Positions 12,053 through 35,486 of a stretch of DNA of 64,000 nucleotides are shown here, in pieces. A model generated the notes under the pieces. It ran no database searches. It saw nothing but the letters and a program-made list of their open reading frames with translations, and had not been told where the DNA came from. The translations under genes were made by a program, and so were the position numbers. This DNA is from Gammaproteobacteria bacterium (GTDB lineage Bacteria > Pseudomonadota > Gammaproteobacteria > GCA-001735895): NCBI GenBank assembly GCA_024225395.1, contig JAAEMR010000174.1:6057-70056 (forward strand), given 5' to 3'. Position 1 is the stretch's first letter. Every line of letters begins with the position of its first letter.

Positions 12053-12069
12053 CAGCAATTGATGTGCCA
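12053..12069 (-). promoter_or_regulatory. Sigma-54 type -24/-12 promoter-like element (CTGGCACATCAATTGCT on minus strand) upstream of the NUDIX gene
   Basis: TGGCAC-N5-TTGCT with correct GG/GC spacing. Forms an inverted repeat with the identical element at 12207-12223. Confidence 0.4.
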
Positions 12070-12206
12070 GTCTCTTATGGTTGGAGAAACTTAGTACTCC
12101 CAGCTTTCAACTTATATGAAGAATATCGCTAATTATTCAGCAACATGTGGTACGTGACTTCACTCCAATAGATTAACAACCTATATATAGCACCCTATTA
12201 TCGGCT

Positions 12207-12223
12207 CTGGCACATCAATTGCT
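12207..12223 (+). promoter_or_regulatory. Sigma-54 type -24/-12 promoter (CTGGCACATCAATTGCT) about 145 bp upstream of the OmpA-like gene
   Basis: TGGCAC-N5-TTGCT. Identical core to the minus-strand copy 140 bp away. Confidence 0.5.
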
Positions 12224-12368
12224 AAACAAACTTCATGAAATCTAAATGGGGTGCTAATGATGAAACTATCCATCTATTCATTTGATTCAGCCGAGGTGGT
12301 GCATATGCCGCAAAAAATAACATTGCAAAATGCATCGTCAGTTGCAAAATGGGGCGCAGAATTGATAA

Positions 12369-12884
12369 ATGAATAATCAACTGAAACTACTTAATCTAGC
12401 CCTTTGTGGCATTTTGCTCTCTGGCTGCTCCAGCATGCAGTCACCCCATGCTGATAGAGTCCCCATGTTTTCACATTCGAATCCGCTAAGAGAGGCTCAA
12501 CCACACTCTCCACTTGCAGCTACGACTGATCAGACTTCGAGCCTGGAACATTATAGTCAGTCTACTGTGTTGTACTTCACCAACGATAGTCATGACATTA
12601 CAGCTGATGCAATGCAAAAACTGTTGATTTTTTTTGATCAACTGGCTTCCACATCCTGGCAACCCATCGTGATAGCAGGGCATACGGATTCCAGTAACAC
12701 TGAGGACTACAACATTAATCTGGCTAAACGACGCACACAAAGTGTTAAAGCGCTGTTAACAGGGCTCGGTTATCCTGGTGATTATATTATCGAGCTAGCA
12801 AAGGGAGAGAGCCAGCCGGTGGCTACTAACTCAACCGCCTCTGGCCGTCAGCTCAACCGTCGCGTTGAGATCCAGATTAAGTAA
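12369..12884 (+). CDS. OmpA-family lipoprotein (SypB-like)
   Basis: Lipoprotein signal LSGCSS. C-terminal OmpA peptidoglycan-binding domain (…IAGHTDSSNTEDYNINLAKRRTQSVKALL…NRRVEIQIK). Confidence 0.8.
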   Translation: MNNQLKLLNLALCGILLSGCSSMQSPHADRVPMFSHSNPLREAQPHSPLAATTDQTSSLEHYSQSTVLYFTNDSHDITADAMQKLLIFFDQLASTSWQPIVIAGHTDSSNTEDYNINLAKRRTQSVKALLTGLGYPGDYIIELAKGESQPVATNSTASGRQLNRRVEIQIK

Positions 12885-13057: not shown

Positions 13058-13624
13058 CTACTCTGCCGGAAGATGGACATCAAGGCCCAGGGGCTTACGT
13101 TTCATAATAAGGGCTTCAACCACACCGATTATTATCATCAATAACGTTGTGATGCTATAGACCTGGTAAACAAGGCCATCCTCAAAGGGCATCTGTGCCT
13201 GATTCCATTTCCATAGCAACAAGGGTACCACTGCTACCAGGCCAGGGATCGCTGCGTAACACAGATTGCGCAGTAGACGGTAGAGTCTCATCCCCAGCTT
13301 GAGACCGATAGAATCGTGCAGATACCCAAGTAACAGGAAATAACAAAAGCTGTGGCAGATACCTAGGCAGACGATCATGCCGAACACGGTATCCAGCATG
13401 TAACTCTCATATAAATTATTACTCAGCAAGGACTCCAGACTAACCGCCACTAGCAATATTAATGCGATACGGATCAACAGCTCAACAATCATCACGATAA
13501 ATAATGGTTGCTTTGCCAGTTCACCCCGCCGCGCACGCTCAGAAACTGTAAGATCGATCGCGCGCGGCGGCACTATCAGCAGAACGTATCCTAACAGGTG
13601 GAAAAAATAGATAATACTACGCAT
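13058..13624 (-). CDS. Hypothetical polytopic membrane protein (188 aa), last gene of the minus-strand export operon
   Basis: Five to six hydrophobic helices. No recognisable catalytic motif. Confidence 0.4.
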   Translation of the reverse strand: MRSIIYFFHLLGYVLLIVPPRAIDLTVSERARRGELAKQPLFIVMIVELLIRIALILLVAVSLESLLSNNLYESYMLDTVFGMIVCLGICHSFCYFLLLGYLHDSIGLKLGMRLYRLLRNLCYAAIPGLVAVVPLLLWKWNQAQMPFEDGLVYQVYSITTLLMIIIGVVEALIMKRKPLGLDVHLPAE

Positions 13625-13654
13625 GCTTAACTCCAGCTTGAGTCATCAAAATAT

Positions 13655-14638
13655 TCATTTGTCTATCCACTCCTCACGGTGTGGGTTTGATGGTTCCTGA
13701 ACTGGTTTGGGATTAACCTTCTCGGCGTAAGCTTTGAGATCACGACGTAATGCGGTTACCACACCCATTACAATCACCACAGCAAAACCCAAAAAGACAA
13801 ATCCGATCATACTGAGTGCAGTCCATTTTTTTCGTGGTGGATAAGATTCAAAAAGTGGTTCGGTCGCCGGTTGAATCATCTCCAATGGATAGTTTTCACG
13901 GGCAAAAATCAACGACTCAACGGCCAGTTGTGCCTCCAACAGGCGGTAGATTGATCGATGCACCTCCTTGTTATTGACTACCTTCAATCGGCTTTCCAGA
14001 TAGGCACGACGGCTTTTTAACTCGTCGGCATCCAGTGAACGAATATATAGGTTAAAGGCTCTAACAAAATCATTAGCGAGGCGCGCGGCACGATCCGGCA
14101 TATCCGCGGTTATTCGGATATTTAAAAGATCCGTCTTTTTATCGATATCGATATACAACGCTTCGGATTTAAATTTCTTTACTGCCTCACGCATATCTGG
14201 TTCGACGCCCTCCCTCCATGTTTTTTTTACTTCGTCCCAATCCTGCGTATATAACCACGGCATTAAATTTTGCTCTGTGATAAAAGAGCTGATAAACCCG
14301 AACGATTCCATACGTGCCAGATGTCGCTCACGTTCATTGCTTTGACTGCCATCAATGATGAAGTCGTATTCTATAACACCAATAGTATTTGCCCCCCGGT
14401 AATTCTTCGGTTGTATGCCACCGGGCGTTTCACTGATATTGATCGCAACCTTTGCCTGGGCTGAGAAACGATCCTCGATCAACCATGACAGTCCAAATAC
14501 TACTCCCGCGCCAAGGATTGCAATGATAGCTATGCGGAACTTGTAGCGCAGTAGCTGGTGCATATACTTTAGCAGCAGCTGGTACTCTGCAAACTGTGTC
14601 TCACCGACCTGGAGCTGGTTTGTTTGTTGATTAGCCAT
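13655..14638 (-). CDS. Polysaccharide chain-length determinant (Wzz/PCP family) protein
   Basis: N-terminal TM (IAIIAILGAGVVFGLSWLI), a large periplasmic coiled-coil region, and a C-terminal TM (LSMIGFVFLGFAVVIVMGVV). Confidence 0.7.
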   Translation of the reverse strand: MANQQTNQLQVGETQFAEYQLLLKYMHQLLRYKFRIAIIAILGAGVVFGLSWLIEDRFSAQAKVAINISETPGGIQPKNYRGANTIGVIEYDFIIDGSQSNERERHLARMESFGFISSFITEQNLMPWLYTQDWDEVKKTWREGVEPDMREAVKKFKSEALYIDIDKKTDLLNIRITADMPDRAARLANDFVRAFNLYIRSLDADELKSRRAYLESRLKVVNNKEVHRSIYRLLEAQLAVESLIFARENYPLEMIQPATEPLFESYPPRKKWTALSMIGFVFLGFAVVIVMGVVTALRRDLKAYAEKVNPKPVQEPSNPHREEWIDK

Positions 14639-14639
14639 A

Positions 14640-17477
14640 TCACTTGATCAGATTAATCATAGCCGCTACGCCGATAGTGTTTTTATAGAAAATATCCACC
14701 CAGGTCGCAAACGACTCCCTACCATTAATGCGGTCAACACTAAGCGGAACATAGACCGTAGATCCGGGTGTAACCTTGACATTGGATGGAGACATAAACC
14801 AACCCCAGGTACTGGCTTTTGAACGCACTGACATAACCTCGCCATTGGCTTGAACGATATAGGCATGTTCATGTTGCGCCAGTTCCTTGGTACCTCCACT
14901 GAGACCAATGTAATCCAGTGCCGCACGACCGGAACGGTATTTGTGCGAAGTCGGAAAATAGACTTGACCGATAACACTGACTTCATCCTGAACCTTGGGT
15001 ACTATGATGCGGTCACCATCCTCCAGTACAACATCTGAGACCTCATCACAATGAGTCACAGCCTCTTCCATATCAATCACCATGCGCCCGGGCGCCTTTT
15101 CCGGGGAAAGCTGTTTAAGCACCCGGAAAACATCCTCTGCAGACTGATCCTTTGGCATTTTCTGATCTTTTTCTACCCCCTGGGACACATGCACATCGGC
15201 TGCCAGTCTCTCAAGTTGATCGAACATACGGTCTAGTGCTTTTTGCTCCTTTTTACGCACGCTCTCACGCAAGAAGACTGAACCAAACAGGTAGGCATCC
15301 TCGGTAAAGCCACCCACCCTCTGAACCAGTGAGCAAAGGGACTCTCGTTTATCAATGCGATAACTGCCCGGATAAATAACCTCACCCTCGATCGTGACGT
15401 GTTTCGGTTTCTCTACCCACTCAGGCTTTTCGCGCAAAACCAGATGATCTTTGGGATGTAAAATCAGGTCAGTTGTTTCAAGTAAGTGGCCTTTCCTGGT
15501 CAAACTGATAGACAACGAATCGGTACGACTGAACTCATTATCCAAAAGGACCTGTCGAGACAAGGTCGCAGCAATACCATAGGCCTCTTCTTTCATCCCA
15601 CCTGCTGCCTTTACAAGGTCTTTAACACGCATGCCGGGTACCATAGGATAAGTACCTGGATGAAAAACTGCACCACTTACCTGTACAACAGGCGCTATCT
15701 CACCGAAACCTGTTTCTCGCTTGATGCGCTCCACCGGGTCATTGATGAGCTCTGAGCGGTTCATATCCTTGTCAAAAAGATAAATTTTATCTTTGGATTG
15801 AAGCATTGGATTGTGATCACCGTTTTTGGCGCGTAGTGCTTCACGCAGAGAAATCTGCACAAAATAGAGGCGATCCGTGCTGAGATCCGTTCTTGCCAGC
15901 AGTGCATAATCCTGATCGACGCCTGATTCCAGTCCGCCAACATTATTGATCATGTCCAGCAAACGTGTACCGGGCTGCAGGGGATATACCCCGGGGTGTC
16001 GTAAGAAGCCTTTGAATTCAATGCTCTTGACCGGAGAGTCAGCGGTCGCCTCACGCTTCATCTTCAACACCACTCGGGACAGTTGTTCGGCACGGGCAGA
16101 GTGGGTATTGAAAATAATCACCTGGTCGCGAGGCTGCAGACGGATATTGCTATCTGAGGCCTTGTTGGCGAGAGCTTCCCCGAGGTTGAAATAAATGACC
16201 TCTGTACGTTTATCACGCCTGTTTTCACGCTGCACCATGGCCACGTCAAATTCAGCCCCCTGCCGTAGAATATTGGTTGAACTGATCAGGTCTGCAATGT
16301 TCATTTTTTTGCGCCACTGGTATCCCCCGGGGGTTAACACATGGCCGGAGAGCAGCACAACATCGTCCATCTTATCCAGGATCGGTAAAACCCGTATCAG
16401 ATCTCCATTTTTCACTTCAATGCCTTTTCCATGTTTTGCCAAATCGGCTTGCAGCAAGGTGTAAAGACCGGCGTTGGATACGCGTTCTATCTGCGCCTGG
16501 GCTTTGTTTGCTGTCGGCAACAAATCTCCAGCCAATCTCAAAACCTGACCCACGGTCCGTTCCTGTCTAATTTCATAGATCGCCGGACGCAGCACATCTC
16601 CCGCGATTCCAACGGTGGCACCGATAGGCGGCACAAAGATCAGATCGCCCTGGCGCAGATAGACGTTGGCGCTGTCATCACCATTGAGCAACAATTTATA
16701 AAGATCCATGCTCGCAATGACCTTCCCACCGCGTTTAACCTGAATATTGCGCAGTGATCCCGTGCGTTTAATGCCGCTACTGGATATCAGGGCATTAATC
16801 AAAGTAGAAAAACCACTCACGGCATAGGAACCGGGTTGTACCACCTCACCGACCAGCATGACCTGAATCGAACGCAGTTCTGATAACGTAACGACGGTCT
16901 TAATACCAATCCGCTGGCTTTCGATGGTTTTCGATATCACCCCTTTGGCTTCATCGAAGGTCAGACCACTGACCGATATGGCTCCCGCTTCGGGTACAAG
17001 GATCATGCCTTCTCGAGTCACCGTAAGCGTGTATTGCACGTCTGCGGCACTGTAAGCCTGAATGGTAAAGGTATCACCCGGCCCAATCACGTAATCCTGT
17101 GGCACTGGCGCACCACTAATCGGTGTAAATGTGGCTGCATTACCAGAGAACATTTCATAACCAAACAGTTCCAGACTGCTCTGTACGGTCTGCTGCTGAA
17201 TCTCCTCTTCCAGGCTCACGGGGTCCAGCGCGTTTGATACCTTTTGTTCGATCTGGGAGGGCTGGTCATCGCTGATAACCGACGGGTCTTTAACGACAAT
17301 GATTCGTTCAGGTTGGTGTGTTTCAGTACTGCCAGTCTGCGCCGCTACAATCGCCTGACGACGTTGCATATCCTCAAGCGTTGAAACACCCAGGCGTTCA
17401 TCGGCAACCACCAGTTGGCCCACGGCTGTGACGAACAGCACCAGGACAACGGGTGCTTTCATTAATATCTTAATCAC
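14640..17477 (-). CDS. Polysaccharide export protein, Wza/SLBB multi-domain family (945 aa; SypC-like)
   Basis: Signal peptide. An N-terminal PES/Poly_export-like region (…GPGDTFTIQAY…) followed by multiple SLBB-like repeats (…GDLIFVPP…, …GDLIRVLP…, …DKIYLF…, …GDRIIVPK…). Stop overlaps the Wzz start. Confidence 0.8.
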   Translation of the reverse strand: MIKILMKAPVVLVLFVTAVGQLVVADERLGVSTLEDMQRRQAIVAAQTGSTETHQPERIIVVKDPSVISDDQPSQIEQKVSNALDPVSLEEEIQQQTVQSSLELFGYEMFSGNAATFTPISGAPVPQDYVIGPGDTFTIQAYSAADVQYTLTVTREGMILVPEAGAISVSGLTFDEAKGVISKTIESQRIGIKTVVTLSELRSIQVMLVGEVVQPGSYAVSGFSTLINALISSSGIKRTGSLRNIQVKRGGKVIASMDLYKLLLNGDDSANVYLRQGDLIFVPPIGATVGIAGDVLRPAIYEIRQERTVGQVLRLAGDLLPTANKAQAQIERVSNAGLYTLLQADLAKHGKGIEVKNGDLIRVLPILDKMDDVVLLSGHVLTPGGYQWRKKMNIADLISSTNILRQGAEFDVAMVQRENRRDKRTEVIYFNLGEALANKASDSNIRLQPRDQVIIFNTHSARAEQLSRVVLKMKREATADSPVKSIEFKGFLRHPGVYPLQPGTRLLDMINNVGGLESGVDQDYALLARTDLSTDRLYFVQISLREALRAKNGDHNPMLQSKDKIYLFDKDMNRSELINDPVERIKRETGFGEIAPVVQVSGAVFHPGTYPMVPGMRVKDLVKAAGGMKEEAYGIAATLSRQVLLDNEFSRTDSLSISLTRKGHLLETTDLILHPKDHLVLREKPEWVEKPKHVTIEGEVIYPGSYRIDKRESLCSLVQRVGGFTEDAYLFGSVFLRESVRKKEQKALDRMFDQLERLAADVHVSQGVEKDQKMPKDQSAEDVFRVLKQLSPEKAPGRMVIDMEEAVTHCDEVSDVVLEDGDRIIVPKVQDEVSVIGQVYFPTSHKYRSGRAALDYIGLSGGTKELAQHEHAYIVQANGEVMSVRSKASTWGWFMSPSNVKVTPGSTVYVPLSVDRINGRESFATWVDIFYKNTIGVAAMINLIK

Positions 17478-18448
17478 TTGAAGTTTCCTCCTTCACTGGT
17501 GACAAAACGGAGACAACCGGAGAAATCTACGATTCTTCCCGCAGAGGTGTCTGGACAACGATCCCGATAGTCGTAAATCCCGTCACCATCGGTATCAGCC
17601 GGCCCCTTGTACAGAACACTCTGTACAAAATGCGTCATGTCTCTAGGCTGTGCTACCTTGTTCGCAGCAACGGAATACCCACAACTGTCGACTGTTTCAA
17701 GTCGTGTCCGCGAAAGCCGGTTGCCAATTCCCAGGGTATACAGGCAAACACCTGAGCGACTGCCTTGCCAGGGCATCGACTCAGGTTTTGAGTCTACTAT
17801 CCCCATACCGCCTTCAAAACTGCTGCGTTGACGCATGCGCATAACGGCATGTTCAACGGCTTTATCGATTTGAGACCAGGAGGTGATCAGAATTACCGCT
17901 GAGCTACCTTCAACCCGGCTAATCAATTCAGAGACTTTATCGAGAGCCGTAGCCAAAGAGTCACTTTCAATTTGTTCCATTGAACCAGGTGAACCTAAAG
18001 CTTGTTCTACGTCATCAGCGGTAAAGTTGGTCACTAGAAGCTCCTGCCTACGCGGATTCGGTTGCTGGTCGTATTTCAGTAGTGCACCGCTATAGCTCTG
18101 ATCCGGCATTGTTTGAGCAAATCGACGCACCATCTCACGAGCATAAAAGCGAGTCTCTACACCGCGAAACTGGCCTGACATCACTGAACTCTGATCGACC
18201 AGAAAGAACAGGTTTTTAACCCGGGGTTCAAGACTAAGATGAGCAACACGGCTGTCCAGCGGAATCGGGTTGAAGAGGTGAATAGACTGTCGATGAAGCT
18301 CAGTGTTGTAGCTTTTAACAGTCGCCAGTTCAGGTTGTGCAGGAACCTTAACCAACCGTTCTAAAGAAACGCAGCCCACCGAATGCAATACGACAAGCGC
18401 AAGACCCAGGGGTTTTAACAAATGCAGTAAACTATTATTGCTCATCAT
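17474..18448 (-). CDS. Lipoprotein with von Willebrand factor A domain and C-terminal thrombospondin-type-3 Ca-binding repeat
   Basis: Lipobox HSVGC. VWA MIDAS-like …LFFLVDQSSVMSG…. C-terminus DTDGDGIYDYRDRCPDT. 4-bp overlap with the Wza gene. Confidence 0.55.
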   Translation of the reverse strand: MMSNNSLLHLLKPLGLALVVLHSVGCVSLERLVKVPAQPELATVKSYNTELHRQSIHLFNPIPLDSRVAHLSLEPRVKNLFFLVDQSSVMSGQFRGVETRFYAREMVRRFAQTMPDQSYSGALLKYDQQPNPRRQELLVTNFTADDVEQALGSPGSMEQIESDSLATALDKVSELISRVEGSSAVILITSWSQIDKAVEHAVMRMRQRSSFEGGMGIVDSKPESMPWQGSRSGVCLYTLGIGNRLSRTRLETVDSCGYSVAANKVAQPRDMTHFVQSVLYKGPADTDGDGIYDYRDRCPDTSAGRIVDFSGCLRFVTSEGGNFK

Positions 18449-18460
18449 ATTGAACCCCGA

Positions 18461-18925
18461 CTAAACATGCTCATAAGTGGCTTGAATCCAACCTGATGAC
18501 CATAGATCCTGAGGGTGAAACCCGGGGAAGGTATCTATACCCACCAGATTCTTTAGCTTATAAAGCACCATAGACATAAAGCTGAGTGTGGCCAGCGTAA
18601 GACCGAATGAAACCACGTAGTGAAAAGTAAGGCGCAAAGGTCCAGGAATGTTCGCCCTGCGTGAATCTTCCAACCGATAGCTAGATATACGCTGGTCACG
18701 CCCGGTAAAAAAACTGAAATAGAAACTGCGAAAAAACAGCGGTAGATTAAAAATACTGTCTATACGGTGACGCGAAGCCTCATCCCTGGCAATCAATGCG
18801 GATGGTAGCAAATTATAATGTTCATCAGTTAGCAAATCTCTGATCCTTTGAGGCACTCTGCTCAAGGTGAAATCAGCAAATGTCTCGCTATTGACTCTCT
18901 GTTCTATTCTCATACAACTTCTCAT
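18461..18925 (-). CDS. Hypothetical protein (154 aa), first gene of the minus-strand export operon
   Basis: ORF with a C-terminal hydrophobic helix, positioned immediately downstream of a sigma-54 promoter-like element. Confidence 0.35.
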   Translation of the reverse strand: MRSCMRIEQRVNSETFADFTLSRVPQRIRDLLTDEHYNLLPSALIARDEASRHRIDSIFNLPLFFRSFYFSFFTGRDQRISSYRLEDSRRANIPGPLRLTFHYVVSFGLTLATLSFMSMVLYKLKNLVGIDTFPGFHPQDLWSSGWIQATYEHV

Positions 18926-18981: not shown

Positions 18982-18998
18982 TGCAAAAAATGAGCCAG
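18982..18998 (-). promoter_or_regulatory. Sigma-54 type -24/-12 promoter-like element (CTGGCTCATTTTTTGCA on minus strand) about 58 bp upstream of the 18925 start
   Basis: TGGCTC-N5-TTGCA. GG and GC are correctly spaced. Confidence 0.4.
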
Positions 18999-19272
18999 CT
19001 AGCTATCAAAGTGATTTCCACTCAGGTAAAGCCAGTTAATGGAATACATATGAGACATACACGGAAGAGGCCTTAAGAAGCTGATATTAATCTATGCTAT
19101 TCGCAATAAAGTCCCGATTACCAAACCACAATATTGAAGGCATATTCTGAATATGCATTGCATTTTGAGAAATTAGCAACCATAAAGCGCTTGTGCACAC
19201 AGCATTGGTAGAGAACGCCTCCCAAGGGCCAAAATAAGCCCCGGTCAGGCATGCGACAGATTCCTGGATACG

Positions 19273-19290
19273 TTGGCATGATATCTGCAG
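19273..19290 (+). promoter_or_regulatory. Sigma-54 type promoter-like element TTGGCATGATATCTGCAG upstream of the biosynthetic operon
   Basis: TGGCAT-N5-CTGCA. Nearly identical to the element at 28150 (TGGCATGATCTCTGCAG). Confidence 0.5.
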
Positions 19291-19491
19291 AACCTGAATT
19301 AGATTTGAATTGGCTTCACCGTTTCGAACCGGATCGGTAGCTTAGGGCAAGGACATATGTGAACGTCTGTTAACAACCCTGCCGGAGTCAATACTGTTTA
19401 AATATGCAGAAAAAGCCGATTTTGCTGCAAGAAGACGGCTTATTTAATGCAGTATGAAAATGATTTTTTTAATTGAGTGAGGAATTTTTCT

Positions 19492-26577: not shown

Positions 26578-26700
26578 AATCGTAAAAGTTAAAGCCAAAG
26601 CCATTTATATTGCTGCTGGTGACAATTTTGCCGGACGATAAACTGTATAGCCGCCGGTAACCAGATTTACGCACTAACGGGAACATCGCTTCCAAATATT
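26578..26700 (-). pseudogene. Degenerate fragment paralogous to the N-terminal region of the GEVED/LruC-like secreted protein gene (8324-10429)
   Basis: About 70 percent nucleotide identity to 10201-10330. Minus-strand translation …YSLSSGKIVTSSNINGFGFNFY matches …YSLLSSDLGTNNKINGFGFNFH. No intact ORF. Confidence 0.5.
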
Positions 26701-27898: not shown

Positions 27899-27916
27899 TT
27901 GCAATGACTGTGCCAA
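27899..27916 (-). promoter_or_regulatory. Sigma-54 promoter TTGGCACAGTCATTGCAA (minus strand), perfect TGGCAC-N5-TTGCA, about 145 bp upstream of the STAS-sugar transferase start
   Basis: Exact match to the consensus -24 TGGCAC and -12 TTGCA with canonical spacing. Confidence 0.6.
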
Positions 27917-28149
27917 CGTTTTTGATAACGTTTTTTACTGGTTTATCCGCTTCTATTTTCAGAATGCATTGCAATATGCTTTTTCATCGAAGGTATTTTC
28001 GCGGGATGCTTATATTTGAGAAATTTTCAACCCAAATTTTATTTCTCAGTTCATCACAAAATGCATAAACTTAAAATTCTCACTAAGCCCATATGCAGCT
28101 CAACATGTAACTCGTTGATTTTTGAATTATTAAATATATATTTAATGTC

Positions 28150-28166
28150 TGGCATGATCTCTGCAG
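28150..28166 (+). promoter_or_regulatory. Sigma-54 type promoter-like element TGGCATGATCTCTGCAG about 195 bp upstream of the SypE-like gene
   Basis: Near-identical to the 19273 element. Correct GG/GC spacing. Confidence 0.5.
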
Positions 28167-28358
28167 TGTTTGCTAACACCACCACTCAATTGCGGAGTTA
28201 CAGATGAATACTGAATATACCAACCAGGCTAATATATATGCATTGGGATCTACTCAAATACGTCCCGAACAAGAACAGGTTGGCAACATAGATGAATTAT
28301 TACGTGAAATTAGCCGCCTGGATCCTGCTATTAACGGGTTGACCTAATAATTAATAAA

Positions 28359-29933
28359 ATGGTTTCAGCAAAGCAACTTACTAAATCTGGAGATATAAAT
28401 TCAGTGAATCGTCTACTCATAGAAAACCAGCAACCGGCAACACTCGAATCCGTTCGTGAGCTACGCCATTTACTGGAACAGGTAACTCTGATGAGGGTTC
28501 CACAATCATTCATAAAAAAACGTATGCTGCTTTGCCTGTCAGAAGCAGCCACAAACCTGATACAACATGCTTCAACCAGGTTGAGTCAGATCACCATGCG
28601 TTTCGGAAAAAACAACACCGGCTGGTGGCTGGAAATTTTAGATGATGGCAATGCATTGGACCCAGCCAATGCAGTATTACCAAATAGTCTGGATAAATTT
28701 AGTGAATCCGAAAGTGATCGAGGTCTATCATTATTGAATAGCTTGTGTGACCATTTTGAATATCAGGCAGCCAGCAGTGGTAACGAGTTGAACAGACTAA
28801 GACTTCTGTGGAATAGCCCGGCACAGAATACTCGACCCCATATCCTTTTGGTAGAAGATGATAATTCCCTGCGTAAATTGTATGAACTTTACCTGGCAGA
28901 AACATTAGAAGTTACCACTGCAGCCAGTGGTCAGGAAGCATTATTGAAGCTAGAAACAGAGCAGATCGACCTGGTATTATCAGATATCTGCATGCCACAA
29001 ATGGATGGCATAGCATTACGCGAGCAACTGATCACAGACAGCAATTCACGCTTGATTCCTTTCATATTTCTAACTGCGATGGGTGATACTGCTCATGTTG
29101 AAAAAGCCACCAGTCTGGGTATTGATGACTATCTGACCAAACCGATAAAGAAAGAACAGTTAATCATAACCATTCAGCGTGTGTTGAAACGATCTGAGCA
29201 AGTCTACCAACAGTTGACTGACCGCATAGATGAGGGAATCACTTCTTCACTCGCACCCAGTGTACCGAAAATGAATAATAACTGGAATCTTGGCATCGCA
29301 AATCGTCACACTGGCAGCGGTGGAGGGGATCTTTTGTTACACCGGTCAGGCAAAGATTTTATGCAGATAATGCTCACCGATATCATGGGGCATGATGATT
29401 GTGCCAAATTTTTTGCTCATGCCTGTGGTGGCTATCTCAGAGGATTGATGAATGCCGCTACTTCAGATAGAAATCCTGCGAAGTTACTGGATCAAATGTC
29501 TGACTTTTGTCTACAGGATCAACTGATGTCAAAAATAACTCTGACCAGTTGCTCAGCTGTTTTATCGAATAACGGTGAGATCACCCTGGCCTGCGCCGGA
29601 CACCCACCGCCACTGCTAATCACCCCGAAAGGCATCAGCAAACTACAAGTCAGCGGTATACTACCTGGTCTGATTCCCGATACCAATTATCAATCGACAA
29701 CATTTAAGGTGGCGGCAGATGAAAGAATCGTCCTGTATACCGATGGACTATTTGAGTCTGCAGCAGATGAAAAACTTCGGCAACAACTAGAACAGCGAAT
29801 AACTTCAGAGCTCGTTAATACCCTGAATGACCCCATTGAACAGGCACTGGAAAAAATAATGGCCGTTTTTGATGAACTGGGGGGATCACCGCCTAAGGAT
29901 GATGTACTGTTGCTTTTAATGGCGCCGGTTTAA
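28359..29933 (+). CDS. SypE-like three-domain regulator: N-terminal RsbW-type Ser kinase (HATPase_c_2), central REC receiver, C-terminal PP2C/SpoIIE Ser phosphatase
   Basis: N-terminus …LCLSEAATNLIQHAS…WWLEILDDGNALDP…. REC …ILLVEDDNSLRKLYELYL…DLVLSDICMPQMDG…LTAMGD…. PP2C …GGDLLLHRS…DIMGHDDCAKFFAH…ACAGHPPPLLI…LYTDGLFE…. Confidence 0.8.
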   Translation: MVSAKQLTKSGDINSVNRLLIENQQPATLESVRELRHLLEQVTLMRVPQSFIKKRMLLCLSEAATNLIQHASTRLSQITMRFGKNNTGWWLEILDDGNALDPANAVLPNSLDKFSESESDRGLSLLNSLCDHFEYQAASSGNELNRLRLLWNSPAQNTRPHILLVEDDNSLRKLYELYLAETLEVTTAASGQEALLKLETEQIDLVLSDICMPQMDGIALREQLITDSNSRLIPFIFLTAMGDTAHVEKATSLGIDDYLTKPIKKEQLIITIQRVLKRSEQVYQQLTDRIDEGITSSLAPSVPKMNNNWNLGIANRHTGSGGGDLLLHRSGKDFMQIMLTDIMGHDDCAKFFAHACGGYLRGLMNAATSDRNPAKLLDQMSDFCLQDQLMSKITLTSCSAVLSNNGEITLACAGHPPPLLITPKGISKLQVSGILPGLIPDTNYQSTTFKVAADERIVLYTDGLFESAADEKLRQQLEQRITSELVNTLNDPIEQALEKIMAVFDELGGSPPKDDVLLLLMAPV

Positions 29934-29967
29934 CTTAACTAATGGCAGTTTGATCAAAAGCAGTTAA

Positions 29968-30210
29968 CACAAATCCACACCATTGACCTATTCCTCATCG
30001 ATCTAACTCTAGAGGATGGTAATGGCCTTAACATTGCCAGAAATATCGGTGAAAAATCAACTGTTGGTATCATCATTGTCTCTGGAAAAACCCGTGATAT
30101 TGATCGAGTTGTCGGGTTGGAGATTGGAGCCGATGACGACATCAGCAAACCTTATTTATCCACGTGAGCTATTAGCCCGTGTTCGACCGTTCTTCGACGA
30201 ACAGAAGGCA
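29968..30210 (+). pseudogene. Remnant of an OmpR-family (ArcA/TorR-like) response-regulator gene: internal REC fragment with a frameshift, lacking both N-terminus and wHTH domain
   Basis: Translation …IDLFLIDLTLEDGNGLNIARNIGEKSTVGIIIVSGKTRDIDRVVGLEIGADDDISKPY then a +1 shift to PRELLARVRP… resembles ArcA/TorR residues about 50-125. No start codon, no phospho-acceptor region, no DNA-binding domain. Confidence 0.55.
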
Positions 30211-30342
30211 ACCGCTATCCTGACAAAAAGAAAACTTTTACTCCGAAAAAGTATCATTCTCAATAATTTAAAAAACAGTACACAACATATAGCACCAGGT
30301 TTTATTGATATTAATGATATTTTAAATATTGACTAAATTAAG

Positions 30343-30358
30343 TGGCATAGATATTGCA
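30343..30358 (+). promoter_or_regulatory. Sigma-54 promoter TGGCATAGATATTGCA about 65 bp upstream of the REC-PBP-HK-EBP operon
   Basis: TGGCAT-N5-TTGCA with canonical spacing. A TTCTCAA motif lies about 85 bp upstream. Confidence 0.55.
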
Positions 30359-30423: not shown

Positions 30424-30843
30424 ATGCTATTTGTTAACAATAAACAAAAAATACTGGTAATAGACGATGATGCCGGCCTGCGCAGACAGCTTAGCTTTCG
30501 ACTGGAAAAACGCGAAAGTCTCAAAGTCATAGAAGCAGAGAATGGACAGAGCGGACTGACTCAGGCCAACAATCAGAATCCTGATTTAATTATTCTCGAC
30601 TGGATGCTGCCGGACATTCAGGGCCCAGAGGTGCTCAATCAACTCAAAAATCATGATCAAACCCGTATGATTCCGGTATTAATGCTCACCGGGAAAAATA
30701 AAATTGGCGATATCGAAGATGCATTTGATCTGGGTGCTGATGCGTATTTAGTCAAACCCTTCAATTTGCAAGATTTGGCAGGAAAAGTGAATAAATTATT
30801 AAATCAGTCTAGCAAAAATGACATCCAATCCTATACTATTTAA
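30424..30843 (+). CDS. Single-domain response regulator (CheY-like receiver)
   Basis: …KILVIDDDAGLRRQL…DLIILDWMLPDIQGPEV…VLMLTGKNKIGD…LGADAYLVKPF…. Confidence 0.8.
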   Translation: MLFVNNKQKILVIDDDAGLRRQLSFRLEKRESLKVIEAENGQSGLTQANNQNPDLIILDWMLPDIQGPEVLNQLKNHDQTRMIPVLMLTGKNKIGDIEDAFDLGADAYLVKPFNLQDLAGKVNKLLNQSSKNDIQSYTI

Positions 30844-30865
30844 ACTACTTGCTGGAGATAACTGC

Positions 30866-31705
30866 ATGAAAACTCTTTTGACCATAACCATTCTTTTATT
30901 CAGCCTTACCTCCATAACCGCCCAGGCAGATGTAAATCTTAAATTTGGTGTTTATACTTCTGATAAACCCACAACGATGGTCAAAATGTTTCGCCCTATA
31001 CTCAACATACTTGAACAGGAAATGACAAATAAAATAGGCGAGCCTGTCAACATCACTTTGCATGTGGCTAAAAGCTATGATCAGGGTATCAATGACCTTG
31101 TTAGCGGACAGGTTGATTTTGCACGAATGGGGCCTGCATCCTACATCACCAGTAAAGAACAAAATTCTGAGCTGCAACTACTCGCGATGGAAAGCAAAAA
31201 AGGTAAAAAGGTATTTTATGGCATTATATGTGTTCAGGATCAAAGTCCAATAAACAAGTTAACTCAAATTAAGGGCCATAGCTTTGCATTTGGTGATAAA
31301 CGTTCAACCATCGGTCGTTACCTATCTCAATACCAGCTTGCACAACAGGGTATATATGCTAGAGATTTAAGCAGTTATGAATACCTGGGTCGACATGATA
31401 GAGTTGGCACCGCAGTTGGCGCAGGTCAATTCGATGCAGGTGCGCTCAAGGAAAGTACTTTTAAAAAGCTAAAAGCAAAAGGAGTAAAAATTCGTGAGAT
31501 CTCTCGATTTCCCAATGTCACTAAACCCTGGATTGCCAGTAGTAATTTGAATAAAAAATTATTTTCTACGCTAAAAGAAAGTTTGCTTGAACTTACCGAT
31601 GTCACGGCATTAAAAGTCTTAAAGAAACAGGGATTCCTTTCTGCCAGTGATGATGATTACAATATTATTCGCAAATCGATGTTAAGTAATGCCACTTTTT
31701 TCTAA
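30866..31705 (+). CDS. Periplasmic solute-binding protein, PhnD/SsuA-like fold; probable ligand-sensing partner of the adjacent hybrid kinase
   Basis: Signal peptide MKTLLTITILLFSLTSITAQA, then …LKFGVYTSDKP…FRPILNILEQE… typical of phosphonate-type PBPs. No ABC permease or ATPase genes adjacent. ATG at 30866. Confidence 0.65.
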   Translation: MKTLLTITILLFSLTSITAQADVNLKFGVYTSDKPTTMVKMFRPILNILEQEMTNKIGEPVNITLHVAKSYDQGINDLVSGQVDFARMGPASYITSKEQNSELQLLAMESKKGKKVFYGIICVQDQSPINKLTQIKGHSFAFGDKRSTIGRYLSQYQLAQQGIYARDLSSYEYLGRHDRVGTAVGAGQFDAGALKESTFKKLKAKGVKIREISRFPNVTKPWIASSNLNKKLFSTLKESLLELTDVTALKVLKKQGFLSASDDDYNIIRKSMLSNATFF

Positions 31706-31755
31706 AAACAAACAATAGTCAACCCTACGTAAAAAGCTGTTGATAGTTAGATTAG

Positions 31756-34086
31756 ATGAAGCCTGCCCCTCAACCCTCTACTAAACGACGTTGGCCACTC
31801 TGGTCCCAGATGGCGCTGGCACTGGTAGCGGCCCTGCTGGTCGTTAACCTGATCACTGTTATTTTTACTCGCCATATAGTCAGTGATTTTACATTAGATC
31901 AGGTTGAGGAAATTAGCCGCAGCTCTTTTGCACTGCTAACCGCAACAGCCATCGATGCGGTGATTACTGAAGACATTCCACTACTGGAAACAATTGCTGC
32001 GCACTCACTAGAGAAAACACCCAGCATGATCAGTCTTAGAATGGAAAATGAACAGGGTAAGTTGCTGGCTCAACAATCACGTCCACAGACCACGGCCGAT
32101 GACAAGATACGCAGCTACCGTTATGCCATCAAATTCGAAGGTGAGCAATTCGGTACTTTAAATATCCGATGGGATATACAGCCGATTGAAACAAAGATCA
32201 ACAATCATGTTATCAAAGTCCAGCTGTTTATATCTGCCATGCTTATTCTGCTAACACTCCTCACGGTTATACTCATTTACTGGCTTAGCATTCGACCAGT
32301 TCACCGTATTACTCACTATCTAACTTTACTATCGAAAAATAGCCAGCAGTTACCCCTGAAACTGCCTGTTTTTACAAGTAGTGAACTGGAATTACTATCG
32401 ACCTCAGCCAATGAACTTTCTGAGATGATGCAACAGCAAGTTAAACGTGAAAGAGAGCTACTTTCAACACGGGAGGAACTGTTGATTGCCCATGATGAAG
32501 CTCTCAGTGCCAACCGGGCCAAATCGGGTTTCCTGGCGACTATGAGCCATGAAATACGCACCCCCATTAATGCCATACTGGGAATTCTGGGACTATTAAA
32601 AGACACTTCCCTGAGTGAATATCAACAGCAACTGGTACAAACAGGCCGTGGATCAGGTGAGCTTCTGCTAACCATTATTAATGATGTTCTTGACTTTTCC
32701 AAAATGGAAGCTGACAAATTACAACTGGAGTACAGTGGTTTTAATATCCATCACCTGTTTGCCCAGGGAATTGAAATTCTTAAGCACCAGGCCGATGAGA
32801 AGGGGTTAACTTTTATTCTTATTATGGATCCAGGCTTACCCCGTTATGCCAAAGGCGATCCGGATCGAATTCGCCAGATTTTGATTAATCTGATCAACAA
32901 TGCGATCAAATTCACTGCCAGCGGCTGTATTACCGTCAAAGTATCGCTTTTAAAAGATAACGATGAAAGTTTTTCATTACACTGCTCGGTACAGGATACC
33001 GGCATCGGCATCGACGAAGATCATCTGGCTGGTATTTTCGATGAATTTACTATGGTTGATCAAACTCATTCTCGGCATCATGAGGGATCAGGCCTGGGTC
33101 TGGCTATTTGCAATCGTCTGGTCAATCTTATGCAAGGCAGTATATACTGTGAAAGTGAACCGACAAAAGGCAGTATATTTTCCTTTAGTATTCAACTGCA
33201 GCACATACAGGAGGATGAATGTACCAATATTACAATTCCTATAGCTGAAGTTGCAACAATAATTCCGGGCAGAGATATTCGTATCCTGCTGGCGGAAGAC
33301 AATACAGCCAACCAGTTTGTTATCAAGAATATGCTGAAATACGCAGGTTTGCAGGTAGATATAGTTGCCAATGGCCTTGAGGCCGTTGAGGCTATTCGTA
33401 ACCTTCCTTATGATATAGTTCTAATGGATATTTCCATGCCGGAAATGGATGGTCTAACGGCCACTCAGGAAATTCGAAAATACCCGGAACCTGCAGGCAA
33501 ACTTCCCATTATAGCTATTACCGCTCATGCTCTGTCAGGAGACCGGGAGCGTTTTATTAATGCGGGCATGAATGATTACCTGAGTAAACCCATTGACCGC
33601 GATCTCATGCTGAACTGCATTGCACGCTGGACAAAGGATCATACCATTCATCAACATGACGAAAACAGCCTGCAACATTCGGATACCGATAATCTGCAAG
33701 CCAAAAATGAAGATCACTATGTTGATGAACAGGTATTAAAACAATTGGTACGTGATACTGACGCTGAAATAGTGCCAGAGATACTATTGTTTTACATTGA
33801 AGATGCTAAAAAAAGATCGCAATTAATTAGTCAGGCAATTACAGAAGATAATTTCAAGGCCCTGGAATTTGAAACACATACTTTAGGAAGCAGTGCAGCC
33901 GCTCATGGTAATGAAAAGCTGCATCAGCTAGCCCGTAAAATTGAACACAGCTGTAAACAATATAATTTAAAACAAGCCCTGTTAGAAGCGAAGACATTGT
34001 CTAATGTAGCCAATGAATCCTTTCGTCTATTGGCTCAATACGCTAACAAAGGGTTCAAGTCAGATAATTGGAAAATAAAAGAATGA
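31756..34086 (+). CDS. Hybrid sensor histidine kinase (TM-periplasmic-TM, HisKA, HATPase, REC, Hpt; SypF-like)
   Basis: H-box …SHEIRTPINAILGIL…. G-boxes …DTGIGI…GSGLGLAI…. REC …ILLAEDNTANQ…DIVLMDISMPEMDG…. Hpt …HTLGSSAAAHG…. Confidence 0.85.
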   Translation: MKPAPQPSTKRRWPLWSQMALALVAALLVVNLITVIFTRHIVSDFTLDQVEEISRSSFALLTATAIDAVITEDIPLLETIAAHSLEKTPSMISLRMENEQGKLLAQQSRPQTTADDKIRSYRYAIKFEGEQFGTLNIRWDIQPIETKINNHVIKVQLFISAMLILLTLLTVILIYWLSIRPVHRITHYLTLLSKNSQQLPLKLPVFTSSELELLSTSANELSEMMQQQVKRERELLSTREELLIAHDEALSANRAKSGFLATMSHEIRTPINAILGILGLLKDTSLSEYQQQLVQTGRGSGELLLTIINDVLDFSKMEADKLQLEYSGFNIHHLFAQGIEILKHQADEKGLTFILIMDPGLPRYAKGDPDRIRQILINLINNAIKFTASGCITVKVSLLKDNDESFSLHCSVQDTGIGIDEDHLAGIFDEFTMVDQTHSRHHEGSGLGLAICNRLVNLMQGSIYCESEPTKGSIFSFSIQLQHIQEDECTNITIPIAEVATIIPGRDIRILLAEDNTANQFVIKNMLKYAGLQVDIVANGLEAVEAIRNLPYDIVLMDISMPEMDGLTATQEIRKYPEPAGKLPIIAITAHALSGDRERFINAGMNDYLSKPIDRDLMLNCIARWTKDHTIHQHDENSLQHSDTDNLQAKNEDHYVDEQVLKQLVRDTDAEIVPEILLFYIEDAKKRSQLISQAITEDNFKALEFETHTLGSSAAAHGNEKLHQLARKIEHSCKQYNLKQALLEAKTLSNVANESFRLLAQYANKGFKSDNWKIKE

Positions 34087-35486
34087 GTGATAAACCCAGC
34101 ATAATTTTAATTGAAGATGACCTGTCTCAGGCACGGCTTGTCCAGCAATATCTCAAGCATGAGATGATTACACTTACCCACGTGGCTACCGGTGAAGAAG
34201 CCAAATCGCTTATCTCGGCTAATCCACCCGAACTGGTTTTACTTGACTTGCAGCTACCCGACATGGATGGACAGAAAATTCTTCAGTGGATACGGGAGCA
34301 GGGATTTCCATGTTCAGTTATTGTCATTACCGCCCACAGTTCCGTTGATATTGCCGTAGAAGTCATGCGTATCGGTGCAGAAGATTTTCTGGAAAAACCT
34401 TTTAATGCTAGCAGGTTAAAAACCACCATTAAAAACTTGCTGGATAAAAATCGTTTACAGCATATTGTAGATAATTATCAAACCACTTTCGAACGAGATC
34501 ATTATCATGGATTTATAGGCTCCTGTTTGCCAATGCAAGCTGTTTACCGGATCATTGATGCTGCGGCTCCCAGTAAAGCTTCTGTTTTTATCACTGGAGA
34601 GAGTGGAACAGGCAAAGAAGTATGCGCCGAAGCAATCCAGAAACAGAGTACACGCGCCAACCAACCTTTTATTGCCTTAAACTGCGCGGCTATTCCGCAT
34701 GATTTAATGGAAAGCGAAATTTTTGGCCATATGAAAGGAGCTTTTACCGGTGCTGCTACCGAACGTAAAGGCGCGGCTACACTAGCAGATGGAGGTACAT
34801 TATTTCTGGATGAAATTGGTGAGATGGACATGGATCTGCAAACCAAACTATTACGTTTTATTCAGACCAGTAGCTTTCAGAGGGTTGGTAGCAGTAAGCA
34901 GGAAACTGTAGATGTACGTTTTATCTGTGCCACCAACAAAGATCCACTTGAAGCCATAGCCAATGGCCGCTTCAGAGAAGACCTTTACTATCGATTGCAC
35001 GTCGTACCGCTTGATCTACCTCCTTTACGTGATCGAGGTGATGATATTTTGGAATTAGCCAAACATTTTCTTATAACCTATGCCAAAGAAGAAAATAAGG
35101 GGTTCGAGAATTTCACCCCCGAAGTAGAGGTTATCCTTCGAAGTTACAATTGGCCGGGTAATGTACGCCAATTGCAAAATGTCATTCATAATATCGTTGT
35201 ATTACATGAAAATAAAAGTGTCGTTTTAGCACACCTCCCTCCCCCGCTTAATACCTCATTAAATGAGAATGAAATATCCCAGTTAATTCCGACAAAACAA
35301 TCAACTAAAACCTTTGAGCAACCCCATCTTACCCCGATAAGACCCCTGGCCAGTGTTGAACGAGAAACCATCGAACAGGCAATTGAACTCTGTGAAGGAA
35401 ATATTCCTAAAGCTGCAGCTCTTCTTGAGGTTAGCCCATCTACCATTTATCGAAAGAAACAAGGTTGGGATCCCGATGCTTTTTAA
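34083..35486 (+). CDS. Sigma-54-dependent response regulator / enhancer-binding protein (NtrC family; SypG-like)
   Basis: REC (…IILIEDD…LVLLDLQLPDMDG…), AAA+ (GESGTGKE, GAFTGA, …ESELFGH…) and a C-terminal Fis-type HTH. ATGA overlap with the kinase stop (alternative start at 34068). Confidence 0.85.
   Translation: MSDKPSIILIEDDLSQARLVQQYLKHEMITLTHVATGEEAKSLISANPPELVLLDLQLPDMDGQKILQWIREQGFPCSVIVITAHSSVDIAVEVMRIGAEDFLEKPFNASRLKTTIKNLLDKNRLQHIVDNYQTTFERDHYHGFIGSCLPMQAVYRIIDAAAPSKASVFITGESGTGKEVCAEAIQKQSTRANQPFIALNCAAIPHDLMESEIFGHMKGAFTGAATERKGAATLADGGTLFLDEIGEMDMDLQTKLLRFIQTSSFQRVGSSKQETVDVRFICATNKDPLEAIANGRFREDLYYRLHVVPLDLPPLRDRGDDILELAKHFLITYAKEENKGFENFTPEVEVILRSYNWPGNVRQLQNVIHNIVVLHENKSVVLAHLPPPLNTSLNENEISQLIPTKQSTKTFEQPHLTPIRPLASVERETIEQAIELCEGNIPKAAALLEVSPSTIYRKKQGWDPDAF

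Follow-up and report, generated by a model that had tools for sequence, protein, structure and literature searches.

A Syp-type regulatory cassette beside a STAS-fused priming transferase in a candidate sulfated-exopolysaccharide locus of an uncultured marine gammaproteobacterium

The 64,000-nt stretch of DNA analyzed here (the window) comes from the metagenome-assembled genome (MAG) of an uncultured marine gammaproteobacterium and carries an exopolysaccharide (EPS) system that spans approximately 6.0-35.5 kb. We regard this system as probably a Wzx/Wzy-dependent exopolysaccharide locus under two-tier Syp-type control. Judged by orthology and gene order, the locus is a mosaic and not a plain syp locus: a Syp regulatory cassette has been joined to a priming enzyme of the XssP/All4160 type in an EPS cluster that bears a sulfotransferase. 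An earlier note on this DNA had described a Syp-like, sigma-54-wired island at 12053-35486. Gene calls were made from a six-frame listing of open reading frames (ORFs) together with Pfam and NCBIfam scans, and the searches reported below covered the window and a set of related loci fetched for comparison (L-numbered). All of the gene classes listed in the earlier note were found in the Pfam and NCBIfam scans, with "Wzz" and "O-antigen-ligase-like" assigned by transitive homology only. Its limits, however, were too narrow, as the system reaches left to approximately 6010. The note had also missed the connection to xss and All4160, a relic of sypA, a stand-alone RsbW-like kinase, and a module on the left that encodes an LruC-domain protein, a lipoprotein, and an epimerase.

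A homologue search with the kinase-receiver-SpoIIE protein encoded in the window returned hundreds of relatives of the same architecture in marine gammaproteobacteria. We used as reference syp loci those of Parasalinivibrio latis (Vibrionaceae), Psychromonas ossibalaenae, and four uncultured relatives, which served as proxies for the V. fischeri ES114 proteins. All 6 were ordered STAS(sypA)-OmpA(sypB)-Wza(sypC)-sypD-sypE, followed by a hybrid kinase and a sigma-54 enhancer-binding protein (EBP), which is the published syp order. Between sypE and the kinase and EBP genes, a single receiver-domain (REC) gene was found in 3 of the 6 loci and a PhnD-like gene in 5 of the 6; a PhnD-like gene between E and F has already been noted in syp-like clusters of Vibrionaceae (PMC5801674). 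The corresponding region of the window contains the following features.

28204-28347, plus strand: sypA relic, a 47-aa ORF that matches the SypA N-terminus (blastp E 3e-6 against SypA of L008), with DSSG changed to DPAI and the C-terminal half gone
28359-29933, plus strand: SypE orthologue with RsbW-like kinase, receiver, and PP2C/SpoIIE phosphatase domains (Pfam HATPase_c_2, Response_reg, SpoIIE)
29950-30340, plus strand: truncated, frameshifted OmpR-type receiver-domain pseudogene, which contains a 106-aa ORF at 30016-30336
30424-30843, plus strand: single-domain response regulator (Pfam Response_reg 1.5e-27; 56-71% identity in L002, L007, and L008)
30818-31705, plus strand: PhnD-like periplasmic binding protein (Pfam Phosphonate-bd 2.9e-47), at the same position in syp-type loci
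31756-34086, plus strand: SypF-type hybrid histidine kinase with 2 transmembrane segments and HisKA, HATPase, REC, and histidine phosphotransfer (Hpt) domains (Pfam)
34068-35486, plus strand: SypG-type sigma-54 EBP with REC, AAA+ with GAFTGA, and HTH_8 (Pfam); the true start is probably ATG 34083

The SypE-like protein was 45-62% identical to SypE of the six canonical sypABCDE loci and retained the invariant residues N66, D209, D324, D341-H345, and D462 of its kinase, receiver, and PP2C domains. The hybrid kinase was 48-64% identical to the kinases of canonical loci over its cytoplasmic part, and 48-70% across the related loci. The PhnD-like protein is its presumed sensory partner. The EBP scored 642 bits on the Vibrio LuxO model versus 388 on the NtrC model, and SypG is approximately 48% identical to LuxO (PMC10162802). 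Its identity to the EBPs of canonical syp-order loci was 64-80%, from 64% in Parasalinivibrio latis to 80% in L008. By these comparisons the regulatory arm (28.1-35.5 kb) is orthologous and syntenic to the sypA-B-C-D-E-F-G loci and genuinely belongs to the syp family. The 106-aa ORF of the earlier gene map is part of the frameshifted REC pseudogene. Two REC genes lie at the position of this pseudogene, between the sypE-like gene and the single REC gene, in L008 and L078.

The remains of sypA indicate how this arm was derived. L008 and L077 have sypA promoters similar to the one at 28150 (TGGCATGATCTCTGCA), and DNA homology extends over the sypA promoter and start, then resumes at the junction of the sypD end and the sypE start. 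A segment sypA'-sypB-sypC-sypD was therefore deleted from a canonical ancestor. Neither a functional sypA nor a sypD was found in the window. The OmpA-like protein of the window was 29-32% identical to SypB, over the OmpA domain only, and the Wza-like exporter was 20-25% identical to SypC. On these grounds, the structural genes are not syp orthologues and belong to a different conserved cluster, that of Alteromonas and uncultured relatives. The likely origin of the locus is thus a canonical syp locus that lost sypA'-sypD, whose regulatory cassette now lies beside a sulfotransferase EPS cluster with an XssP/All4160-type priming enzyme. The claim that gene content and organization match the syp paradigm consequently holds for the regulatory arm, in which SypE, SypF, and SypG are orthologous and in the same order and a sypA relic is present; the structural genes are alike at the level of domains, with sypA and sypD missing.

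The priming enzyme is encoded on the other side of a control region shared with sypE.

26753-27757, minus strand: STAS and Bac_transf fusion, the priming enzyme, 334 aa (Pfam STAS 1.9e-14, Bac_transf 1.5e-64)

The fusion of STAS to the transferase that had been proposed is real. We placed the start at ATG 27757, which gives 334 aa and an exact match to NCBI MCP4077425.1. The start at TTG 27916 proposed earlier would overlap the promoter of the gene itself. The STAS domain occupies residues 14-115 and keeps the DSSG motif with a predicted phosphorylated serine at position 67; the C-terminal part is a small monotopic phosphoglycosyl transferase (PGT). Residues D66-S67-S68-G69 and the catalytic D238-E239 were invariant in 32 gammaproteobacterial and cyanobacterial homologues. 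Sequence matches in the PDB were to SpoIIAA/TM1442 for the STAS part and to WbaP and PglC for the catalytic part, and the best NCBIfam matches were EPS_sugtrans, WcaJ, and WbaP. The enzyme was 50% identical to XssP over 93% of the protein, and its transferase domain was 34-44% identical to SypR-type enzymes. In an AlphaFold2 model made with the 32-sequence alignment, the STAS domain had a predicted local distance difference test score of approximately 90 and was followed by a disordered 16-residue linker. The fused STAS and the sypE gene are 600 bp apart across their common control region, and no other STAS domain was found in the window by tblastn or hidden Markov model (HMM) searches.

The family is mostly cyanobacterial (40 of 47 species-level genome loci). 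A metagenome scan for relatives added just three more gammaproteobacterial loci, none with SypE nearby. With HMMs built from SypE domains, 28 of the 52 cyanobacterial loci (in the set L014-L071) proved to have an RsbW-like kinase ORF on the same strand no more than 1.5 kb 3' of the STAS-transferase gene, often overlapping it by 9 nt. The pair looks like a two-gene operon widespread in cyanobacteria, and the published all2285-all2284 seems to be one case of it. In several gammaproteobacterial relatives a stand-alone STAS gene lies directly 5' of the STAS-transferase (L002 9520-9936, L004 9516-9929, L005 9538-9942, and L010 approximately 9875-10390); these paralogues are 47-53% identical to the fused STAS domain and look like a recent duplication or a product of fission.

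Transcription by sigma-54 was assessed with the pattern TGGCAC-N5-TTGCW, for which exact or one-mismatch sites were counted across the window and compared with expectation. Three exact and five one-mismatch matches were found versus 3.06 expected, and all eight lay within 7050-30358. Six of the eight were non-coding, correctly oriented, and 20-260 nt 5' of a start codon, a placement that accounts for 4.6% of positions (P of approximately 2e-7). With two mismatches allowed, there were 52 matches versus 40 expected, which is little above chance; those with the GG and GC elements intact include sites ahead of the sulfotransferase operon (19274), sypE (28150), and the LruC gene (10479). Sigma-70-like promoters were under-represented in the region (17 versus 27 expected). 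The main sites are as follows.

7065-7050, minus strand: sigma-54 promoter of the epimerase gene, TGGCACAGTTTTAGCA
7112-7133, minus strand: palindromic enhancer-like site for the epimerase gene, core TGCAATGCA
12069-12054 (minus) and 12208-12223 (plus): divergent pair of identical exact sigma-54 promoters, TGGCACATCAATTGCT (pattern match)
18982-19289, both strands: divergent control region in which sigma-54 promoters 18997-18982 (minus) and 19274-19289 (plus) flank a palindromic enhancer, TTCTGAATATGCATTGCATTTTGAGAA, at 19145-19171
27900-28165, both strands: divergent control region of the priming transferase and sypE, with an exact sigma-54 promoter at 27915-27900 (minus), an enhancer at 27956-27982 with its core at 27965, a second TGAGAA element at 28015-28032, and the sypA-type sigma-54 promoter at 28150-28165 (plus)
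30343-30358, plus strand: sigma-54 promoter of the REC-PhnD-kinase-EBP operon, TGGCATAGATATTGCA, with equivalent exact sites in L008, L077, and L078

The enhancer motif of SypG was taken as TTCTCANNNTGMDWN, as defined in PMC10162802, citing Ray et al. 2013. The SypG upstream activating sequence (UAS) TTCTCANNNTGMDW was matched exactly at 19171-19158, where it forms half of the 27-bp palindrome between the two structural operons. The core TGCAWTGCA occurred five times in the window versus 0.5 expected, and three of the five were directly 5' of sigma-54 promoters (7115, 19154, and 27965). Counts of the SypG UAS and LuxO-box patterns over the whole window were not above chance; for these patterns, position and conservation across loci alone are informative. 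We therefore aligned the regions 5' of the STAS-transferase gene from 8 loci, whose proteins are approximately 70% identical. The invariant columns formed two blocks, CA-ATTGC-A-GC--CT--AA, which is the enhancer, and TGGCA-N6-TTGC, which is the -24/-12 promoter. Six of the 8 loci have the exact enhancer core, and in all six it lies 58 nt 5' of the promoter. This phylogenetic footprint is the strongest evidence for sigma-54 wiring, and together with the placement of the best sites and the SypG-type enhancers ahead of operons it bears out the wiring that had been proposed. An Rfam scan of the whole window found no RNA family, hence no Qrr-like small RNA behind any sigma-54 promoter.

A 41-aa ORF at 12251-12376, 3' of the sigma-54 promoter and ahead of the OmpA-like gene, was considered as a STAS (sypA) remnant. 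It was rejected because neither its protein nor its DNA was significantly similar to any of the STAS sets.

The export and biosynthetic genes diverge from the control region at 18982-19289, and the OmpA-like lipoprotein gene lies to their left.

12369-12884, plus strand: OmpA-like peptidoglycan-binding lipoprotein (Pfam OmpA 4.2e-16)
13058-13624, minus strand: 188-aa polytopic membrane protein, last gene of the export operon, 39% identical to the syntenic gene of Alteromonas A079; no family match in Pfam or NCBIfam
13655-14638, minus strand: Wzz-like chain-length protein of the polysaccharide co-polymerase (PCP) type, 65% identity in Alteromonas A079
14640-17477, minus strand: Wza-type outer-membrane polysaccharide exporter (OPX) with multiple SLBB domains, 945 aa (Pfam Poly_export, SLBB)
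17474-18448, minus strand: VWA/TSP3 lipoprotein, conserved partner 5' of the exporter (Pfam VWA 9.9e-06, TSP_3 0.0038)
18461-18925, minus strand: 154-aa protein, first gene of the export operon, after sigma-54 promoter 18997-18982; no family match in Pfam or NCBIfam
19477-20379, plus strand: sulfotransferase of the type that uses 3'-phosphoadenosine-5'-phosphosulfate (PAPS) (Pfam Sulfotransfer_3 8.3e-17, Sulfotransfer_1 3.6e-10), with TKCATTS and RDPTDRAFS PAPS-binding motifs
20376-21671, plus strand: candidate Wzy/O-antigen-ligase-like polymerase, polytopic, 431 aa, with homologues at 32-34% identity that have PF04932 (Wzy_C)
21668-23191, plus strand: GT4 glycosyltransferase fused to an Alg14-like domain (Pfam; NCBIfam PssD 1.2e-21)
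23188-23661, plus strand: Alg13-like protein (Pfam; NCBIfam PssE 2e-28)
23685-24995, plus strand: Wzx flippase (Pfam Polysacc_synt, MatE), 55-85% identity in relatives
25101-26054, plus strand: GT2 glycosyltransferase (Pfam Glycos_transf_2 2.4e-34)

With the priming PGT, the Wzx/Wzy pathway set is complete. The PGT, Wzx, and OPX were assigned by direct Pfam matches, and Wzz and Wzy by transitive homology. The Wzz-like protein had a direct Pfam Wzz E value of 0.052 and was 34% identical to a Marichromatium protein with PF02706. The 431-aa membrane protein had no direct match in Pfam (E up to 10) or NCBIfam, and hhalign against Wzy_C proteins of the Chromatiaceae loci gave a probability of 0.1. 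The exporter was 68% identical to that of Alteromonas and 42-44% identical to those of Chromatiaceae; the Chromatiaceae loci with a related exporter also carry the STAS-transferase. The VWA/TSP3 lipoprotein was 48% identical in Alteromonas and had partial matches in the Chromatiaceae loci. By its domain matches, the GT4-Alg14 protein together with the Alg13-like protein is a split enzyme of the PssD/PssE type; L058 and Alteromonas encode GT4 and Alg14 in two separate genes. The sulfotransferase was 25% identical to Synechocystis XssA (E 2e-11) and 66-72% identical to its counterparts in L058 and Alteromonas, where it is also the first gene of the biosynthetic operon. The polymer is most likely sulfated, with a repeat unit of approximately 4 sugars.

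Both divergent structural operons were syntenic in the complete genome of Alteromonas sp. A079, at 55-68% identity, with lower values for the small membrane protein and the VWA lipoprotein (39-48%) and for the GT2 (36%). A sigma-54-like site, TGGCATAGTTCTAGCA, lies ahead of the sulfotransferase gene in that strain. The A079 core is located at 3303-15817 of L080 (CP185260.1), and its priming transferase and regulators are not within the 10-kb flanks. In L058, the biosynthetic operon, again with the sulfotransferase first, recurs beside the EBP and the STAS-transferase.

Moving the left boundary out to approximately 6010 adds an epimerase, a lipoprotein, a secreted LruC-domain protein, a stand-alone RsbW-like kinase, and a NUDIX hydrolase to the locus. 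A fragment of an LruC-like gene is also present next to the STAS-transferase.

6010-7014, minus strand: NAD-dependent sugar epimerase/dehydratase, final gene of the LruC-lipoprotein-epimerase module (Pfam Epimerase 3.6e-55)
7887-8312, minus strand: 141-aa lipoprotein with a lipobox in its translation, a conserved partner of the LruC gene with no function assigned
8324-10429, minus strand: secreted LruC-domain protein with DUF6923 repeats, GEVED, and DUF4842 (Pfam; NCBIfam TIGR04456 1.4e-74)
10762-11166, minus strand: stand-alone RsbW-like serine kinase, 3' of the NUDIX gene on the same strand (Pfam HATPase_c_2 1.1e-21)
11454-12020, minus strand: NUDIX hydrolase (Pfam NUDIX 3.4e-12), with the exact sigma-54 promoter 12069-12054 ahead of it
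26570-26670, minus strand: LruC-like gene fragment of approximately 100 nt from the N-terminus, 81% identical in nucleotides to 10209-10297, with an in-frame stop (tblastn)

The LruC-lipoprotein-epimerase triplet adjoins the EBP and the STAS-transferase in L002, L004, L005, L009, L010, and L058, and a triplet of DUF4842, a small ORF, and an epimerase adjoins two canonical syp-order loci, L008 and L078; we therefore consider the triplet part of the system. Identities were 66-74% for the LruC-domain protein in relatives, 44-56% for the lipoprotein in those six loci, and 56-61% for the epimerase, which is syntenic in L002, L004, L005, L009, and L010. The LruC-domain protein is a candidate co-regulated matrix or surface protein, and a weak sigma-54-like site (10479-10464, two mismatches, GG/GC intact) precedes its gene. 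The LruC fragment lies in a 700-bp gap 3' of the STAS-transferase and is probably the scar of a rearrangement that split the LruC module from the EBP/STAS-PGT module. The stand-alone kinase was approximately 25% identical to cyanobacterial PGT-linked kinases and 29-32% identical to SypE. At such values it is about equally distant from both. The lipoprotein and epimerase genes adjoin each other in relatives; in the window they are separated by approximately 870 bp (7015-7886) without a convincing ORF or an Rfam match, and this gap holds the sigma-54 promoter and palindromic enhancer of the epimerase gene.

From these components we propose control at two levels. At the first, the PhnD-like protein and the SypF-type kinase would pass phosphate by way of Hpt to the SypG-type EBP, which would bind TTYTSA-N3-TGCA-W-TGCA sites and activate the sigma-54 promoters of at least 7 transcription units. 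The predicted targets are the epimerase gene, the NUDIX gene (with the stand-alone kinase gene 3' on the same strand), the OmpA-like lipoprotein gene, the export operon, the sulfotransferase/biosynthesis operon, the priming transferase gene, sypE, and the regulatory operon itself. At the second, phosphorylation of Ser67 by an RsbW-type kinase, either the N-terminal domain of SypE or the stand-alone kinase or both, would hold the first committed step off. Once the SypE receiver is phosphorylated by the relay, the PP2C domain would strip the phosphate from Ser67 and the pathway would run. The same signal would thus be needed for transcription and for enzyme activation, which would make a coherent gate. 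Synthesis would start with priming by hexose-1-phosphate transfer, followed by three transfers by the GT4, the PssD/PssE-like pair, and the GT2. Sulfation, flipping, polymerization, and chain-length control would come next, and then export by Wza with the VWA/TSP3 and OmpA-like lipoproteins.

Two published cases serve as models for the direction in which the switch would work. In Anabaena, Ser74 in the STAS domain of All4160 is phosphorylated by an RsbW-like kinase, which renders the enzyme inactive, and the REC-SpoIIE protein HenR reactivates it (PMC13555669, 2026). In V. fischeri, SypE acts on SypA as an inactivating kinase when it is unphosphorylated and works as a phosphatase once phosphorylated (PMC4517449). 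This polarity matches that of All4160, and in the window the phosphorylated STAS is likewise predicted to be the off state. Reversible serine phosphorylation of the priming enzyme, which was demonstrated for All4160, is predicted here by analogy from the intact kinase and phosphatase domains. SypE is intact although sypA has decayed, which argues that SypE still has a substrate. A lost sypA and an intact SypE beside a STAS-bearing transferase also raise the tentative idea, more doubtful than the two-tier control itself, that SypA-type STAS regulators have the priming phosphoglycosyl-transferase step as their downstream target. Unphosphorylated SypA would then activate SypR in V. fischeri, and STAS-gated priming would be a general control point of EPS synthesis across phyla and no peculiarity of cyanobacteria.

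Several results weigh against two-tier control. An RsbW-type kinase was found within 10 kb in 0 of 14 related gammaproteobacterial STAS-PGT loci (HMM search), and the adjacency of SypE in the window could therefore be an accident of rearrangement. The fused STAS is approximately 22% identical to SypA-type STAS, and SypE may therefore not recognize it. The transferase domain was modeled poorly by AlphaFold2 (predicted template-modeling score 0.36), so nothing was concluded about contacts between the STAS and catalytic domains. The rpoN gene is absent from the window, the promoter candidate at 10479-10464 and the -12 elements of the sites at 19274 and 28150 are weak, and the sulfation of the polymer is argued from one gene. 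A further STAS protein, or a second syp locus, may also be encoded in the part of the genome beyond the window. In one alternative, transcription is of the Syp type, and the fused STAS is not a target of SypE. The STAS domain would instead be served by the stand-alone kinase (10762-11166) and an unlinked phosphatase, or would have a role other than phosphorylation, such as membrane targeting or ligand binding, and SypE would be an orphan or act on a STAS encoded elsewhere. This arrangement agrees with the higher identity of the fused STAS to the stand-alone STAS proteins of sister loci, with the cyanobacterial cognate kinase being a stand-alone RsbW-like protein (PMC13555669), and with sister gammaproteobacterial loci having no SypE within 10 kb. 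However, SypE has kept every invariant catalytic residue despite the decay of sypA. The DSSG loop is invariant and is the region of the fused STAS most like SypA (54% over 24 aa), sypE and the STAS-PGT gene use one divergent enhancer region, and the stand-alone kinase is no nearer to the cyanobacterial PGT-linked kinases than to SypE. We consider this alternative unlikely, albeit worth keeping in mind, and favor action of SypE on the fused STAS.

Another possibility is an ordinary capsule or O-antigen cluster with an unrelated two-component/EBP operon as its chance neighbor, in which case the promoter and enhancer matches would be coincidental and expression would be independent of sigma-54. 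The structural genes, which are not syp orthologues, and the occurrence of the same structural core in Alteromonas A079 without an EBP or SypE within 10 kb are compatible with this, as is the total of two-mismatch sigma-54 sites, which was only slightly over chance (52 versus 40). Against these stand the positional enrichment of the high-quality sites, the conservation of enhancer and promoter across 8 loci, the linkage of EBP, STAS-PGT, and LruC module in the six relatives named above, the scarcity of sigma-70-like promoters, and the sigma-54-like site ahead of the Alteromonas sulfotransferase gene. Comparison with the proxy loci placed the regulatory arm in syp and the structural arms in the other cluster. 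We consider an ordinary cluster very unlikely. Another concern is that the sequence comes from a MAG, in which a syp regulatory fragment and an EPS cluster from different organisms might have been assembled into a chimera. Some related contigs are indeed binned to implausible taxa: L009 and L011, with a gammaproteobacterial-type locus, sit in Polaribacter and Urechidicola (Bacteroidota) MAGs, probably through mis-binning. However, several independent contigs, as long as 138 kb, contain exact copies of window proteins of the two arms, the junction bears the sypA relic, the REC pseudogene, and the LruC fragment with no clean break, and the same enhancer motif is present in both arms. L002 independently has REC-PhnD-kinase, EBP, and STAS-PGT genes on one contig. 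A chimera is very unlikely as well, and two-tier control of one contiguous locus remains the preferred reading.

Compared with sypA-R of V. fischeri and the syp-like loci of Vibrionaceae and Psychromonas, the window shares the tri-domain SypE, the SypF-type kinase with Hpt, the SypG-type EBP, the order sypE-(REC)-(PhnD)-F-G, sigma-54 promoters with SypG-type UAS, a sypA promoter and remnant, and the logic of coupling transcriptional control with phospho-control of a STAS domain. It differs in having no functional sypA or sypD, no orthologues of SypB or SypC in its OmpA-like and Wza-like proteins, and another set of glycosyltransferases. The window also has a sulfotransferase, a STAS inside the priming transferase, a stand-alone RsbW-like kinase, NUDIX, and the LruC module. 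The All4160/HenR/Alr3423 system of Anabaena PCC 7120 (PMC13555669) is similar in its STAS-Bac_transf enzyme with a conserved serine, its RsbW-like kinase, and its REC-SpoIIE phosphatase. In contrast to that system, the kinase and phosphatase of the window are fused in one SypE-type protein encoded beside the enzyme, and the locus is gammaproteobacterial and coupled to sigma-54 and an EBP, with no heterocyst context. The xss cluster of Synechocystis PCC 6803 (synechan, a sulfated EPS, on pSYSM; PMC8205485) likewise combines an XssP-like transferase, an XssA-like sulfotransferase, and a Wzx/Wzy/PCP pathway. However, it is regulated by XssS/R/Q (a two-component system and a STAND activator) and not by SypE/F/G and sigma-54, has eight glycosyltransferases versus approximately 4, and has its OPX outside the cluster. 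We did not find the XssS/XssR/XssQ system in the window, where similarity was limited to generic kinase and receiver matches with no STAND/NACHT activator. Alteromonas sp. A079, KUL42, and AMM-1 and uncultured marine gammaproteobacteria share the arrangement of transmembrane protein-Wzz-Wza-VWA divergent from sulfotransferase-Wzy-GT4-GT2-Alg14-Alg13-Wzx; the Alteromonas cluster differs in having no STAS-PGT, SypE, or EBP within 10 kb and in its separate GT4 and Alg14 genes.

STAS-fused priming transferases have been called rare outside cyanobacteria, and their regulation a lineage-specific strategy (PMC13555669). The clade of such enzymes in marine gammaproteobacteria and Chromatiaceae means that this view needs revision. 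The suggestion that the locus is possibly undescribed is accordingly narrowed: a 2026 study of Anabaena had already described a STAS-fused priming transferase that is controlled by phosphorylation (PMC13555669), whereas no proteobacterial case wired to Syp was found in the literature searched. In this locus the Syp kinase/phosphatase is tied, by position and by evolution, to a STAS domain on a priming transferase, and the main value of the locus is the testable hypothesis that Syp-type STAS regulators act on the priming transferase. In addition, because a conserved EPS cluster with a sulfotransferase is present in cultivable Alteromonas, sulfated bacterial EPS may be commoner in the sea; sulfated bacterial exopolysaccharides are of biotechnological interest.

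No tRNA, integrase, or flanking repeats were found in the window, and we therefore rejected the term "island" in the sense of a mobile element. The right flank is metabolism unrelated to the EPS locus. At 35716-47915 and 51341-54041 it encodes a BCCT transporter, ETF-QO, RACo, a pterin-binding methyltransferase, MTHFR, a B12-binding protein, and formate-tetrahydrofolate ligase, which together make up a corrinoid-dependent cluster for demethylation of quaternary amines of the glycine-betaine type. Genes for a carnitine-type BKACE and a 3-hydroxyacyl-CoA dehydrogenase-thioesterase come after this cluster.

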